A stretch of 64,000 bases of DNA. It comes from Klebsiella phage vB_KpnM_VPA32. The stretch lies in the sequence record OP558005.1; one strand, 5' to 3'. A program made the position numbers and the translations under genes. Each line of letters starts with the position of its first letter. The first letter of the stretch is position 1. The notes below the pieces were generated by a model, which did no database searches, was not told the DNA's origin, and was given only the letters and a program-made list of their open reading frames with translations. Below are positions 14,402 through 64,000 of the stretch, piece after piece.

Positions 14402-15079
14402 TCAGAATGAAATAAGTTCTACATGATAAACTGTATGCGTTCCACCTGGATTAAAATCCACATCCTCAATGCTAGTTACTCGGAACTTCGTTCCGATTGG
14501 CATCATCCATTCTTGCTCATCCTGGACCATATTGACTTTATTCTTGCGGTCAATTTTTGCTTGTGGGTCATAAGGTGCAGCGCTGAACTCACAGTTAGGA
14601 GCTGCCAAAAGCAGCTTAAGCATATCTTCTTGATAGTTGTAAGCTACAGTAGGGTTAGACCAGCTGATGATAGTCTTAGTTCCATAACATCCGAAACTAG
14701 CAAAGCTTCTTGCTGTGTTAAAGTCAGTTGAAAAGCTTACAACTTTTTCAGCAGTAAAAATTTCTCCAACTTCGATGTTACAAAGAACATTAAGCATTCG
14801 GTTGTTGACACCACGATAAAGCACTTCAGGAGTAGCAGTTGTCATACGGCGACGAATGATTTTATCCAGCCCGGCGTTTACCCAATCCTCAACTTTATCG
14901 TTTAAACACTTCCATAAAACGGCTTGCTCTTTGTCTGTGAAGAGTTTGTTAACTTCAGATTCAAGCTGCTTACGCTTGAGTTCTTCTGGGTCTTCCCAGT
15001 ACTCATACATTCCACCGGATGGAACTGGAATTGATGATGTGATTTCTACTTCAATGACAGGACTTTGAAATAATGCCAT
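14402..15079 (-). CDS. modA: ADP-ribosyltransferase, ModA/ModB-like
   Basis: R-S-ExE ART triad: LYRGV, SFSTD, QDEQEW; start moved to MALFQ with GGAGG Shine-Dalgarno. Confidence 0.72.
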   Translation of the reverse strand: MALFQSPVIEVEITSSIPVPSGGMYEYWEDPEELKRKQLESEVNKLFTDKEQAVLWKCLNDKVEDWVNAGLDKIIRRRMTTATPEVLYRGVNNRMLNVLCNIEVGEIFTAEKVVSFSTDFNTARSFASFGCYGTKTIISWSNPTVAYNYQEDMLKLLLAAPNCEFSAAPYDPQAKIDRKNKVNMVQDEQEWMMPIGTKFRVTSIEDVDFNPGGTHTVYHVELISF

Positions 15080-15106
15080 GATAACCTCCGTTTGTTTACG
15101 GAAGCT

Positions 15107-15136
15107 ATCATAACATGGAAGAGAAGGGATGTAAAC
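15107..15136 (-). promoter_or_regulatory. T4-type early promoter upstream of modA-like gene
   Basis: GTTTAC 15131-15136, 18-nt spacer, TATGAT 15107-15112. Confidence 0.55.
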
Positions 15137-15138
15137 GG

Positions 15139-15348
15139 TTATTTTGCCCAGGGAGCCCAAGGCGGAGGGTCTGCCCACAACGAGGACAGTTCGTCGCATA
15201 GAGCTTTTGTGTAATCTACCCCATGCTTTTTGAAGATGCTTTCCAACTCTATCGCTATGCTCTGGTCCACCTTCGGACCAGATTTCATATCAAATTCAAC
15301 GTATCCCTTTGGAACGTCTTCCTCAAACATATCGAAAATGTTACTCAA
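15139..15348 (-). CDS. hypothetical protein
   Basis: 69-aa acidic ORF. Confidence 0.4.
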   Translation of the reverse strand: MSNIFDMFEEDVPKGYVEFDMKSGPKVDQSIAIELESIFKKHGVDYTKALCDELSSLWADPPPWAPWAK

Positions 15349-59794: not shown

Positions 59795-59928
59795 TTCATC
59801 CTAATGTCACCTTACATTTGCATTTTGGACATTCAACTTCTTTTACTCGAAGACGCTTAGTCTTTGTACGATGAGCGGTATCATGGTCATAAACATGAAG
59901 ACAACGATAGCAAATGACTAATTTCATC
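59795..59928 (-). CDS. small zinc-ribbon protein (about 44 aa)
   Basis: C..C...C..C pattern; under 60 aa, not in the ORF track. Confidence 0.25.
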
Positions 59929-60086
59929 GGTCGATAACCTCAAAGATTTCATCCATGATTTCATCACCTTGACGAGCACGAATTAACTCTTCGAACGTAA
60001 CAGGCTTTTCAGACCAACCAAGAACAACGCTATTACGTTGAAGCATATCACGAAGTTCTTCTAAAGCTTCTTGTTTAGTTGAAATC
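59928..60086 (-). CDS. small hypothetical protein (about 52 aa)
   Basis: AAGAAGG Shine-Dalgarno; ATGA coupling to the next ORF. Confidence 0.25.
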
Positions 60087-60097
60087 ATAGAACCTTC

Positions 60098-60682
60098 TTA
60101 TTCATAAATACCGGTCATTTCACACCAATGTTTTCGACAGAGTGAGACGTATTTGTCTTCACCGCCTAATTCAATAGTATCACCTTCTACGATAGCATTT
60201 CCTTCTTGGTCAACACGAGCAACCATTGTTGCTTTACGTCCACAGTGGCAAACGCCCTTCAGTTCGCAGAGTTTATCTGCCGTAGCCAGAAGAGCAGCAG
60301 AGCCCTTAAATAGGTTACCACGGAAATCCGTGCGAAGTCCATAGGCCATAACTGGAGTGTTATAGAGGTCAACAATTTGACATAATTGAAGAACATGAGA
60401 CTGAGTCAAAAACTGAGCTTCATCGACAAACACACAATGAATATCTTTCTGAGTCTGTGCCCATTTGAAGAACTCAAGAATGTCCATGTCTTCAGTGATG
60501 GTATTTGCTTCAGCATGCAAACCAACACGAGATACAACTTCATTTGCTGAATCTCGAGTATCAATAGCTGGCTTAAGAATGAGTGTTCCCATTCCACGCT
60601 CTTTATAGTTATGAGCTGCTGTAAGCAAAGATGCTGATTTACCAGCGTTCATTGAAGCATAGTTAAAATAAAGCTGAGCCAT
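60098..60682 (-). CDS. tk: thymidine kinase
   Basis: 194 aa; SMNAGKSASLL Walker A, VFVDEAQF, C-terminal zinc Cys pairs. Confidence 0.9.
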   Translation of the reverse strand: MAQLYFNYASMNAGKSASLLTAAHNYKERGMGTLILKPAIDTRDSANEVVSRVGLHAEANTITEDMDILEFFKWAQTQKDIHCVFVDEAQFLTQSHVLQLCQIVDLYNTPVMAYGLRTDFRGNLFKGSAALLATADKLCELKGVCHCGRKATMVARVDQEGNAIVEGDTIELGGEDKYVSLCRKHWCEMTGIYE

Positions 60683-60891
60683 TACTTAGGTTCCTCAAAT
60701 TCAATCCAGTCTGGGGTGTTTTGGAAAATTCCTTCACCTACATGGTTTTCACAACCTTTATTAGAGCAATAATTCCAATAGTCCCAGTCGCAAGCCATTT
60801 CATCATTGCACAATGCAAATACTACTGGCCATTTGCACTTTTTACATCGTTTATTTTTATAGATGTAAGTTTGCATTATTCGCCGTCCCAA
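60682..60891 (-). CDS. Cys-rich small protein
   Basis: 69 aa, 8 Cys. Confidence 0.4.
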   Translation of the reverse strand: MGRRIMQTYIYKNKRCKKCKWPVVFALCNDEMACDWDYWNYCSNKGCENHVGEGIFQNTPDWIEFEEPK

Positions 60892-61331
60892 TCAACAACT
60901 ACAATATCAGTATTTGGAGTAAACATATTAATTAGTGCTTCAATCTTTTCCCAATCACCGCCAGCAATACCGGCACCAATACGAGGAATGTAGACTTCCA
61001 CCTTAAACAGAGAACCAGATAAAAATTTATCTAATCTTTGAAAAGCATTAACTAACGCGCCGTAATCAAGATTAGGGCCTGGCTCATATTGAGTATAAAG
61101 ATTAAAGCAAGCACTTCCCTTTAATGCATATGCTAAACTAAAAGTTCCAAGCTTTTCACGGGCCGCATAATCAGTAGCTGCTTTATCCGTTGATAAAATA
61201 ACCGGAAATTTTGATGCAAGTTGGCCTGCTACACCAGCACCCATGGTGTGAAAACAATTGCATCCGTGAGCAATTACTTTGCCTTCGGAAAATAGCTTAA
61301 CAATATCACCTTTAATGTATTTTACAATCAT
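60876..61331 (-). CDS. macro-domain protein (ADP-ribose binding/hydrolase-like)
   Basis: 151 aa; GCNCFHTMGAGVAG and RIGAGIAGG glycine-rich macro motifs. Confidence 0.65.
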   Translation of the reverse strand: MIVKYIKGDIVKLFSEGKVIAHGCNCFHTMGAGVAGQLASKFPVILSTDKAATDYAAREKLGTFSLAYALKGSACFNLYTQYEPGPNLDYGALVNAFQRLDKFLSGSLFKVEVYIPRIGAGIAGGDWEKIEALINMFTPNTDIVVVDWDGE

Positions 61332-61747
61332 CTTTTCCTCAACTCAGGTATGCTTTTAAATTGATAAGTAGCGTAGTTTTCAAATTCATCGTAAACTCGC
61401 ACATAAATTTCTTCGCCGCATGTTAAATTCTTAAAAGACTTCAAATCTTTTTCAGAAAAATCTATCGATACTCCATTGATGGTTCCAGAGGATTTGGCTC
61501 CGCAACCTCGAAAATGAATTGAACCACCCGGAATAATAGCTTGGTCTTCTTTGTTAGAGAAATTGTAAAATGATACACCAAAAGCTTTCTTTTTCGGATA
61601 GTAAGAAACTTCAATATTCTTTTTAAACGAACCAGTTGTTTCAACTAGCTTACCATCAATAGCGTAGATATTATCAGGATAGCCTGGGAGTTTTTCCCAG
61701 GCATTTACCGATAATGGTAGAGCTAGCAGAAATGCTGCTATTTTCAC
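61328..61747 (-). CDS. secreted protein
   Basis: MKIAAFLLALPLSVNA signal peptide. Confidence 0.5.
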   Translation of the reverse strand: MKIAAFLLALPLSVNAWEKLPGYPDNIYAIDGKLVETTGSFKKNIEVSYYPKKKAFGVSFYNFSNKEDQAIIPGGSIHFRGCGAKSSGTINGVSIDFSEKDLKSFKNLTCGEEIYVRVYDEFENYATYQFKSIPELRKR

Positions 61748-62070
61748 TTAGATAATCCCGCTATATACACCCTCAATAATGTGTCACGATATTCTTCGCA
61801 AACATTCATATCAGGCGCATTATCACACAACGACTCCAGGTCTTTAGCCTTACGAGCCACCAAGGTAGACCATTTAAAGCGGCTACCAGAATCAGTTTGT
61901 CCTTCAGCATAAGTTTTGTCAAAGTCAAATGACAAAATGTTCAAACACTCCGTATTAGTCTTAGTGCAGAATTGCTTTGCTAATGCCAGTGAATCATCCT
62001 GCTCAGTAGCAAAATCCATCTTACACCCAGATAGAGCAAAAACTATTAGAAGTACAAACAACCTTTTCAT
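61744..62070 (-). CDS. lipoprotein
   Basis: MKRLFVLLIVFALSGC lipobox. Confidence 0.5.
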   Translation of the reverse strand: MKRLFVLLIVFALSGCKMDFATEQDDSLALAKQFCTKTNTECLNILSFDFDKTYAEGQTDSGSRFKWSTLVARKAKDLESLCDNAPDMNVCEEYRDTLLRVYIAGLSK

Positions 62071-62618
62071 TATTCCACCGTATAATGAAGCATTTTACGA
62101 GATTTCAAGTAATTCGCCTTTGCTAATACTTCAGAGGCGTACTTGTTGCCGGCTTTCCACTTGTTTCCTGCGTTGTATGACGCTATGGCTTTTCTCATAT
62201 CACCGTTATGACGGTCCAACCAATAGCTTAACTCAATGTACGCCCAAGCGGCGGAGTGCTTCCGGCTCTTTGCCATGCGGATGATTTCAGCGTCTGTCAT
62301 TGACCATCCGGCTTGTTTAACTCTTTCCCTAAGTGTAGGAAGATAATTTTGAAATATCCCGTAAGCTTGATGTCCGTGTTTACCAGTTGTACGTAAGCCT
62401 GCGGAACTTTCCTGCCAGACTAGTGCAGCCATAATGTAACCAAGTCCATCATTGTCATAGCGCTTACTATGGTCTTTATACTTCCCATTCTTCTGAAATT
62501 GTTCACCAAACGAATATGCGTAATGCAAATTGTCGAGTTGGACATTACTGAAGGTGTGTTCGGACGCGAATCCTAGAGACGAAACTAGGAGTAACGCCGC
62601 GCATAGAGCTTTTTTCAT
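62070..62618 (-). CDS. soluble lytic transglycosylase-like periplasmic protein
   Basis: Signal peptide; SLT motifs VWQESS, AYGIFQ, AYNAG. Confidence 0.6.
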   Translation of the reverse strand: MKKALCAALLLVSSLGFASEHTFSNVQLDNLHYAYSFGEQFQKNGKYKDHSKRYDNDGLGYIMAALVWQESSAGLRTTGKHGHQAYGIFQNYLPTLRERVKQAGWSMTDAEIIRMAKSRKHSAAWAYIELSYWLDRHNGDMRKAIASYNAGNKWKAGNKYASEVLAKANYLKSRKMLHYTVE

Positions 62619-62636
62619 GTTTACCTCAAATTAAAG

Positions 62637-63101
62637 CTATAACTTGATAATCTTTGTGCTGATTTTACCTTTCAAGCGTTTATCATTTACAAATGCCATG
62701 CGACACTGCATGGAATGACCACGGAACGGATGTTCTGGGTTTGGTAAAGAAACAGTCATTCCAAGCCATAGAGTACCATCTGTGATTTCCAGACGTTGAG
62801 GTCTGTACTCTACTTCTGGGTCAATTTCCAATGGGTCAATTGGAAGCATCGGCATTTCTAAGAACTCGTGAATTTCTGTTACATGATTGTGTACTTTGTG
62901 GAACAGAGCGAACACATACTCTTCATCAATTTCTCGCTGGATAGCACGGTCCAGGAGGTGATTAGAATATTTAATAAAGAAAGCTGGAATACCAGCAGAT
63001 GCGCAAGCACTACGTATAGAATCGTTTACACTCTTGAATTCAGTCTCAAAGCGACGACGTAGCTTGTTTCGGCGGATGAATACTTCTGGATTAGTTGTCA
63101 T
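62637..63101 (-). CDS. regB: endoribonuclease RegB
   Basis: EVFIRRNKLRR.FE.EF, KYS.HLLDRAIQREIDE.YVF.LFHK, EYRP.RLEITDG.LWLG, QCRMA match T4 RegB; ORF track starts at TTG, ATG two codons in. Confidence 0.88.
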   Translation of the reverse strand: MTTNPEVFIRRNKLRRRFETEFKSVNDSIRSACASAGIPAFFIKYSNHLLDRAIQREIDEEYVFALFHKVHNHVTEIHEFLEMPMLPIDPLEIDPEVEYRPQRLEITDGTLWLGMTVSLPNPEHPFRGHSMQCRMAFVNDKRLKGKISTKIIKL

Positions 63102-63127
63102 TTTCAATCTCCTTTGTTGATAGGGCT

Positions 63128-63157
63128 ATAGTATCATAGCCCTTGGAGAAAGTAAAT
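63128..63157 (-). promoter_or_regulatory. T4-type early promoter upstream of regB (ATTTAC variant -35)
   Basis: ATTTAC 63152-63157, 18 nt, TACTAT 63128-63133; same ~40-bp module as 10431-10480. Confidence 0.5.
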
Positions 63158-63159
63158 AG

Positions 63160-63432
63160 TCAGTAGTTGTGGTCATCGTAGAACACTTGAAGCAGAACAT
63201 TGTTGCGCAGCTTCTTGGTGTCCGCGATGCGTTGACGGAGCTTGGAGATTTTATCCTGAACCGCATTGAAAGCATCAGAAGTCTTAGGGTCGTGAAGACC
63301 CATAGACTCATCCACAAGCTGCTCCATCTTTTCTTCCATAGCATTGATAGCTTCAGAGAAAGATTCAGAGACTTTGTTGCGGATAGACATTAATACTTTT
63401 CTTCTGGTTGGAATACTGAACGGCATGCCCAC
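63160..63432 (-). CDS. hypothetical protein
   Basis: 90-aa ORF. Confidence 0.4.
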   Translation of the reverse strand: MGMPFSIPTRRKVLMSIRNKVSESFSEAINAMEEKMEQLVDESMGLHDPKTSDAFNAVQDKISKLRQRIADTKKLRNNVLLQVFYDDHNY

Positions 63433-63668
63433 ATAGAAGCTTCTTTCAAACGATCAATTGCATTACGAATCTGAGTGATTCTAGAATGAGCTAGATCGAA
63501 TTCTTCGTCGCTTATAGTGTCAACATCCAAGTCCATGTAAACTTTGACATGCTCTTCTTCAAGAGCTTTAAAAATCAAGCCGAGACGAACTTCAGCATCT
63601 TTAATAGCATTCACTTTACCGATTTTATCATCGGTATGCGGCTTATAGCCCTTGATATCTTCAATCAT
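63390..63668 (-). CDS. hypothetical protein
   Basis: 92-aa ORF. Confidence 0.4.
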   Translation of the reverse strand: MIEDIKGYKPHTDDKIGKVNAIKDAEVRLGLIFKALEEEHVKVYMDLDVDTISDEEFDLAHSRITQIRNAIDRLKEASMWACRSVFQPEEKY

Positions 63669-63829
63669 TCAGCTTTCCTTAATTTAAAAATTTGACCAGT
63701 AGGAGGAACCATTTTCTGAAGACCCCACGTTTTACCATAACCTGCATCTTCAGCAGATTTGTAATTGAACGGAGAAGAAGATTCATCTACCTCATCTTCT
63801 AATTCATAGTCTTTACGTTCAATCGACAT
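63665..63829 (-). CDS. hypothetical protein
   Basis: Trimmed to an internal Met to remove overlap with the upstream ORF. Confidence 0.3.
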   Translation of the reverse strand: MSIERKDYELEDEVDESSSPFNYKSAEDAGYGKTWGLQKMVPPTGQIFKLRKAE

Positions 63830-64000
63830 AAGGAATTTCCTCGTCAGTTTCTTTATCATATTCTACAATGCGAATAGGCTCATTCACACCGTAGCCTTGA
63901 ACACCGATATAAGTTTTAGCATCTTCCCATTGCATAGTTTCTTCATTCCACACACCATTAGCATGGGCTTCCATTAAATCTTGTTCGCCTTGGTTTGAAA
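63819..64000 (-). CDS. hypothetical protein, 5' partial at the window edge
   Basis: Open frame ending TGA at 63819 and running off the window. Confidence 0.3.
   Translation of the reverse strand, partial: SNQGEQDLMEAHANGVWNEETMQWEDAKTYIGVQGYGVNEPIRIVEYDKETDEEIPYVD

Follow-up and report, generated by a model that had tools for sequence, protein, structure and literature searches.

The open reading frame at 60876..61331 of Klebsiella phage vB_KpnM_VPA32 (record OP558005.1; "the window" denotes the whole 64,000-nucleotide stretch analyzed) is, as judged from sequence and gene order, the syntenic orthologue of T4 tk.4 (adfM), an already known gene. Its 151-residue product is a predicted hydrolase, a small stand-alone macrodomain of the Tk.4/AdfM-Adpp (Poa1p-like) family, and it probably has the role described for the T4 protein, which is protection from the host DarTG2 system through stripping of ADP-ribose from thymidines in single-stranded DNA. 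This analysis established the fold and the family membership, showed that the gene is orthologous to and syntenic with T4 tk.4, and found all of the family-invariant residues conserved. A requirement of tk.4 for DarTG2 resistance is published for T4 only, as genetic evidence in one preprint; we infer that the 53%-identical orthologue acts in the same way, by enzymatic de-ADP-ribosylation of DNA.

Orthology with T4 tk.4 and gene context

Identity to the window region is 99.5% for Enterobacter phage Entb_43 and 99.3% for Klebsiella phage KaAlpha, with Enterobacter phage CC31 among the next matches at about 94%. Entb_43 is classified as a Karamvirus (Tevenvirinae), and the window phage is a Karamvirus as well, a CC31-like T4 relative from a lineage that infects Enterobacter and Klebsiella, whereas T4 is a Tequatrovirus of E. 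coli. KaAlpha carries an ORF 100% identical to the macro ORF, the Entb_43 counterpart is annotated as a 'macro domain-containing protein', and the CC31 copy is labelled tk.4 in GenBank. T4 Tk.4 itself (NP_049723) aligns with the window protein over its full length (53% identity, E 2e-62, 152 aligned residues); all 16 family-invariant residues, including H22, N25 and Q81 (Q84 in T4), are common to both, and the two proteins share a length class (151 and 155 amino acids) and a gene position between vs and tk. A neighbor-joining tree, computed without bootstrap, places the window protein among the T-even proteins, T4 Tk.4 included, and the proteins linked to NARP1 elsewhere. The canonical T4 gene set therefore does contain an orthologue of this ORF, and the assertion in the preliminary description that macro domains are absent from that set is wrong. 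The annotation of T4 tk.4, long-standing, reads 'phosphatase; contains A1pp phosphatase motif'.

Gene order in the window is regB, vs.1, vs, a 139-aa ORF, the macro gene, one small ORF and tk, and in T4 it is vs, tk.4, tk.3, tk.2, tk.1 and tk (coordinates of the window features are collected in Table 1). The nearness of tk that had been pointed out from the sequence alone is borne out by the match to the PHROG thymidine kinase family. Two differences from T4 are evident: vs abuts tk.4 directly in T4, whereas the extra 139-aa ORF intervenes between vs and the macro gene in the window phage, and tk.4 and tk are separated by three ORFs (tk.1-tk.3) in T4 but by one small ORF here. At its start the macro gene shares an ATGA (61328..61331, minus strand) with the TGA stop of the preceding ORF, and its own stop codon, read from the sequence, overlaps the next ATG downstream (TAATG); with overlaps at both ends, the gene is one link in a tightly packed, co-directional block. 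Scanning of 59800..64000 for promoters and terminators gave no signal above the shuffled expectation. As to the 139-aa ORF, whose stop overlaps the macro start, its N-terminus is hydrophobic and signal-like (MKIAAFLLALPLSVNA...) and the translation has no Pfam match.

Table 1. Positions of the genes and sequence elements discussed, in window coordinates
Feature	Position	Strand	Basis or remark
ModB-like R-S-ExE ADP-ribosyltransferase	14402..15079	-	PHROG 832 at 1.8e-42
Early-region block, co-directional, tightly packed	60098..63107	-	context; PHROG assignments, Entb_43 annotation, T4 map
tk	60098..60682	-	PHROG thymidine kinase, 1.2e-84
Small Tk.x ORF	60682..60876	-	
Macrodomain gene (T4 tk.4/adfM orthologue)	60876..61331	-	ATG start, 151 aa; ORF call and 53% identity to T4 Tk.4
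Second glycine-rich (diphosphate-binding) loop, residues 116-127, PRIGAGIAGGDW	60951..60986	-	A123 at the position of TARG1 D125
Residues 77-85, NLYTQYEPG, including Q81	61077..61103	-	TARG1 and DarG alignments
First ADP-ribose-binding loop, residues 22-37, HGCNCFHTMGAGVAGQ	61221..61268	-	contains H22 and N25; alignments
Shine-Dalgarno GAGG of the macro gene	61337..61340	-	5 nt before the ATG; read from sequence
139-aa ORF, PHROG 4957 (no known function)	61328..61747	-	
vs	61744..62070	-	
vs.1/SLT	62070..62618	-	
regB	62637..63107	-	

The macrodomain fold

The 151-aa ORF and the two glycine-rich macro motifs quoted for it in the preliminary description are present as described, and the macro fold was found by family profile, by AlphaFold2 modeling and by Foldseek, upholding the claim that the protein is a macrodomain. 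The Pfam Macro model (PF01661) matches the window protein marginally (E 7e-4, 20 bits, the gathering score of 22 not being reached), whereas the T4 orthologue clears the gathering threshold with 27.7 bits; the sub-threshold score reflects the sensitivity of the model, and the evidence from the family profile and the fold is strong. PHROG 335 matches the protein at 1.6e-65, and a single-sequence search of the PDB retrieves yeast Poa1p, BT1257, SCO6735, DarG and TARG1. With a profile built from 68 family sequences, the PDB matches are BT1257 (6e-18), TARG1 (3.5e-16), Poa1p (1.4e-14) and SCO6735 (1.7e-14), followed by the DarG proteins of Mtb (4e-11) and Taq (1.6e-9). An AlphaFold2 model computed from an alignment of 68 homologues has a mean pLDDT of 95.8 and a pTM of 0.90, and its closest PDB structure by Foldseek is TARG1 (E 1.9e-11, TM 0.78-0.84), with Poa1p, BT1257 and DarG next. 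Foldseek gave 178 PDB matches at E<=0.001, the best 50 of which are all macrodomains or designed proteins on macro-like scaffolds. A three-layer alpha/beta fold, two glycine-rich loops and the conserved asparagine are found, as in the macro superfamily at large. On profile and model evidence, the protein can confidently be predicted to be a macrodomain of the TARG1/Poa1p/DarG branch, a call far beyond chance.

Active-site residues

DarG and TARG1 depend on a lysine in a 'TK' motif, K80 in Taq DarG and K84 in TARG1 (reviewed by Mikolcevic et al.). The position of this catalytic lysine is occupied in the window protein by Q81, a placement given alike by three independent alignments (the hmmsearch alignment with TARG1, an hhalign comparison with a DarG profile at a probability of 98.3%, and MAFFT). 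Glutamine is found there in 255 of the 257 family members sampled, T4 Tk.4 among them, and alignment places it also in the Adpp protein of Vibrio phage Gary and in BT1257. The window protein thus has neither the lysine of the (P)TK motif that characterizes DarG nor the K84/D125 dyad of TARG1, for which it carries Q81 and A123. Other parts of the site are conserved: H22, which aligns with TARG1 H32 and Poa1p H23, is present in 250 of 257 homologues, N25 in 255 and G33 in all 257. N25 aligns with the conserved macro asparagine and with N23 of PhiKZ AdfM, mutation of which lowers activity (PMC13309987). Residues near-invariant in the family are H22, N25, D49, Y79 and W127. If a T4-type AdfM hydrolyzes thymidine-linked ADP-ribose, then, to go by these alignments, it would do so without the DarG lysine.

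Among proteins of known structure, human TARG1 (OARD1) is the best structural match, and its K84/D125 dyad is missing from the window protein. The best profile match, BT1257 (2FG1), has no known function; like the window protein it carries glutamine at the lysine position, and its corresponding loop is GCGLAGGKW. SCO6735 resembles the window protein in missing the catalytic duo and sets a precedent for activity without it; it 'lacks the catalytic duo' yet hydrolyzes Glu-linked ADP-ribose (reviewed by Mikolcevic et al.). At residues 81-86 (about 61074..61091) the T-even clade has a short TQYEPGP segment beside the putative catalytic position. In the alignment, a loop of 4-7 residues (e.g., GQYHWHAHKVAPGR) directly follows the glutamine in Adpp and the bacterial relatives but not in the T-even clade. 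That loss of this loop opened the site to DNA is speculation.

Function in DarTG2 resistance and relation to other macrodomain proteins

In a transposon-sequencing study of T4, tk.4 alone was depleted on a host expressing DarTG2, and a clean tk.4 deletion made the phage sensitive to DarTG2; the gene was named adfM, for anti-DarT factor Macrodomain, and enzymatic removal of ADP-ribose from DNA by T4 AdfM was the authors' inference (bioRxiv 10.1101/2025.11.20.689424). The connection to DarTG suggested in the preliminary description is therefore borne out for the T4 orthologue, where it had already been published. In vitro, PhiKZ gp104, also named AdfM, strips DarT2 marks from ssDNA (PMC13309987). 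The T4 screen and knock-out, together with the precedent of gp104, support a DarTG2 role for the window protein. According to this proposal, the macro protein would be made from the early-region gene block, would use its pair of glycine-rich loops to bind the ADP-ribose moiety and would then cleave the bond at ribose C1''; marks placed by host DarT2 on thymidines of single-stranded phage DNA would in this way be removed, and replication would proceed despite DarTG2.

Several observations stand against this role. The catalytic residue that defines DarG and TARG1 is missing (Q81 for K80/K84; A123 for D125), and the bacterial relatives at the loci examined never adjoin a DarT2-like gene. The biochemically proven enzyme, PhiKZ AdfM, is by sequence barely similar to the window protein. 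gp104 is of the DarG type (it carries a PTK motif and matches Mtb DarG at E 9e-25), whereas its match to the window protein reaches only E 0.006; being DarG-like and so weakly related, it represents a separate lineage from the T4-type AdfM, the two having been recruited independently. Furthermore, the closest biochemically characterized relative, Gary Adpp (37% identity), is an ADPR-1''-phosphate phosphatase.

Comparison with DarG itself gives a similar picture. The fold and the macro branch are the same (Foldseek E 2.4e-8, TM 0.78; hhalign probability 98.3%), the conserved asparagine is common to both, and DarTG2 is the target system of T4 Tk.4 too. However, DarG has a C-terminal DarT-binding domain and an adjacent darT gene, whereas the window protein, at 151 aa, consists of the macro domain only and is encoded without an adjacent DarT. 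The NCBIfam DarG model scores 20 bits against it, the cutoff being 250.

The main alternative is that the protein is mainly an Adpp-like ADPR-1''-phosphate phosphatase directed against the product of aRES, this being either its only function or one of two activities of a single site. According to Osterman et al., about 15% of phage NARP1 operons contain a Poa1p-like macro protein, and Adpp of Vibrio phage Gary was shown to convert ADPR-1''-phosphate to ADPR in vitro and to be needed against aRES; ADPR-1''-phosphate is the product of this RES-domain defence, formed via NAD+ phosphorolysis, and its conversion by Adpp lets NARP1 rebuild NAD+ (bioRxiv 10.64898/2026.01.28.702374). The window protein belongs to one family with Gary Adpp (37% identity, E 8e-26), whose motifs it shares, the signature HxxNC...xQ...GxG(L/I)(A/G)GG(D/E)W being common to it and the NARP1-linked macro proteins, and both resemble yeast Poa1p, itself reported as an ADPR-1''P phosphatase in that study. 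The long-standing A1pp annotation of T4 tk.4 points the same way, as does the overlap of the homologue with the Namat stop codon in Acinetobacter phage TAC1. Moreover, the sources of the three tested aRES genes were E. coli, Enterobacter chengduensis and Klebsiella pneumoniae (bioRxiv 10.64898/2026.01.28.702374), and the last two belong to host genera of the present phage lineage.

In that published system, however, Adpp helps only together with Adps and Namat (bioRxiv 10.64898/2026.01.28.702374). Gary Adpp is encoded in an Adps-Adpp-Namat operon, whereas the macro gene of the window was not found in such a setting: tblastn with the Adps and Namat proteins of TAC1, and inspection of the annotation, gave no homologue of either in the window or in the stretch of approximately 165 kb covered in Entb_43, the closest sequenced relative, whose genome has 174.7 kb. 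This lowers the standing of the Adpp reading, as does the fact that the sole phenotype reported for T4 tk.4 is that against DarTG2, and we regard a mainly phosphatase role as unlikely. In the TAC1 genome (MK170160; locus L085, 901..4474) the genes run RNA ligase 2, a PRPP-synthetase-like gene (Adps), a small ORF, Namat and the macro gene. Namat is annotated there as 'nicotinamide phosphoribosyltransferase', and the start of the macro gene overlaps its stop. The arrangement is of the NARP1-AP kind, and the TAC1 macro protein resembles the T-even clade in having TQ.

Entb_43 (ON585039) also encodes a homologue of T4 30.3/AdfN, the anti-DarTG1 NADAR protein (42% identity, E 2e-26). With orthologues of both AdfN and AdfM, the lineage carries the two anti-DarT components that T4 has. 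The AdfN homologue, annotated only as a hypothetical protein, is located outside the window at about 74.8-75.2 kb of Entb_43 (locus L087, 8772..9209); it lies among tRNA genes, where T4 30.3 adjoins DNA ligase. A T4-like role in DarTG2 resistance is thus the favored explanation for the macro protein, because NARP1 genes were not found in the regions searched, AdfN and AdfM are both present, and the protein groups with T-even proteins in the tree.

A broader reading, which we put forward tentatively and consider possible though doubtful, is that the Tk.4/AdfM-Adpp family constitutes a distinct glutamine-type lineage of macro hydrolases that phages acquired from stand-alone bacterial genes with housekeeping neighbors and not from the antitoxin DarG. 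One site would then act, by a lysine-free mechanism, on several C1'' substituents, these being the thymine modified by DarT2 in T-even phages and the phosphate of ADPR-1''P in NARP1-AP phages. If so, the Karamvirus protein could counter both DarTG2 and RES-type NAD+ phosphorolysis, and, in T-even phages, loss of the loop that follows TQ would be an adaptation opening the site to DNA.

The value of the gene as a discovery is small, as it is a standard T-even gene in GenBank and the counter-defence role of its orthologue is published. It is of use for annotation, in that the Tk.4 orthologues of Karamvirus and T4-like phages, mostly entered as 'hypothetical protein' or 'phosphatase', become candidates for AdfM-type anti-DarTG2 factors. 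The residual interest is mechanistic and concerns a T4-type AdfM that lacks the catalytic lysine of DarG and belongs to the same family as an ADPR-1''P phosphatase.

The phage ADP-ribosyltransferase and other proposed targets

The preliminary description had also reported an ADP-ribosyltransferase with an R-S-ExE motif in the window, and this gene is real. The protein is ModB-like, with 36% identity to T4 ModB (E 7e-37) and 32% to ModA (E 2e-18), the motif residues are R89, S115-x-S117 and E188-x-E190, and PHROG 832 matches it (Table 1). It is the single Mod-type gene in the window phage, whereas T4-like records have two. Use of an upstream ATG would extend the ORF to 265 aa (14402..15199), but in relatives the annotated start is the one at 15079, which gives 225 aa. 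The longer ORF (14402..15199, minus strand) has no Pfam match.

From the presence of the two genes a writer/eraser pair had been proposed. Worked out, this would mean that the macro protein reverses or limits the ADP-ribosylation, or RNAylation, of host proteins by the phage's own ModB-like or Alt enzymes. Both kinds of gene do occur in one genome, Alt is found in the relative Entb_43, and in some phage toxin-antitoxin pairs a Macro domain is coupled to an ART or a sirtuin (Iyer et al.). The known chemistry is nevertheless unfavorable: ModA modifies Arg265 of the RNA polymerase alpha subunit and Alt modifies Arg84 of MazF, Arg-ADP-ribose is a substrate of DraG-like hydrolases, and the substrates of the macro branch are Glu-linked protein-ADPr, OAADPr and thymidine-ADPr in ssDNA (reviewed by Mikolcevic et al.). 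The genomic evidence is no better, with the macro and Mod genes 46 kb apart in different gene blocks, some 1800 phage records carrying a macro homologue but no detectable Mod homologue, and the reported phenotype of the T4 tk.4 knock-out dependent on DarTG2. Given the arginine targets of ModA and Alt, the distance and the discordant phage distribution, the pairing is unsupported, and a function of this kind appears highly improbable.

CmdTAC, a defence that ADP-ribosylates mRNA, is reported to be still robust against T-even phages, and T4 carries tk.4. Its effectiveness despite tk.4 suggests that the macro protein does not reverse the mRNA mark.

Destruction or sequestration of ADP-ribose-derived immune signals (gcADPR of Thoeris, His-ADPR) or of other soluble ADPr derivatives is likewise very improbable; a metagenomic relative fused to a NUDIX domain may point in this direction, but neither reported function of the family, anti-DarTG2 and ADPR-1''P phosphatase, concerns Thoeris signals, and no experimental link was found for the Tk.4 family, the literature on CmdTAC, Thoeris II and NARP3 included. 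The Thoeris connection offered in the preliminary description accordingly found no evidence.

Distribution of the family and bacterial relatives

A tblastn search recovered homologues of the macro protein from 2818 of the 50,697 phage records, spanning Pseudomonas, Vibrio, Acinetobacter, FelixO1-like and cyanophage genomes, whereas Mod homologues occur in 1019 phage records, almost all of them phages of enterobacteria and relatives. In a representative library of 1.84 billion proteins, 5750 clusters match the family at E<=1e-3.

Bacterial relatives of approximately 40% identity were examined at 80 genome loci, from Rhodobacteraceae, Hyphomicrobiaceae, Desulfobacteraceae, Verrucomicrobiota, Hymenobacter and others. 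At none of the 80 was an ORF resembling P. aeruginosa DarT2 found within 6 kb (phmmer at E<=10 with a single-sequence query, a search of moderate sensitivity), and no neighbor is conserved across lineages at these loci. The neighbors look like housekeeping genes and are lineage-specific, such as rpoC/rpsL/rpsG in Ruegeria and ileS/lspA in Hyphomicrobiaceae. Lack of a DarT2 neighbor and of any conserved neighbor argues against an orphan antitoxin origin, unlike the case of AdfN and PhiKZ AdfM. Derivation of the Tk.4 family from an 'orphan DarG antitoxin' was considered and rejected on these grounds. The bacterial relatives (loci L005-L084) are chromosomal stand-alone genes from many phyla, with the motifs HGCNCF, YTQ and GAGLAGGDW.

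Among the longer family members, Pfam found only one fusion, that to NUDIX in the metagenomic protein P0077. This protein, of 247 aa, joins a Tk.4-family macrodomain, 49% identical to the window protein, to a C-terminal NUDIX domain. Other relatives of 210-550 aa (P0131, P0232, P0236) have extensions without a Pfam match. In Salmonella phage FelixO1 (NC_005282; locus L086, 3995..4780) the homologue is annotated as a protein of 261 aa, the macro match covering its first 157 or so residues only.
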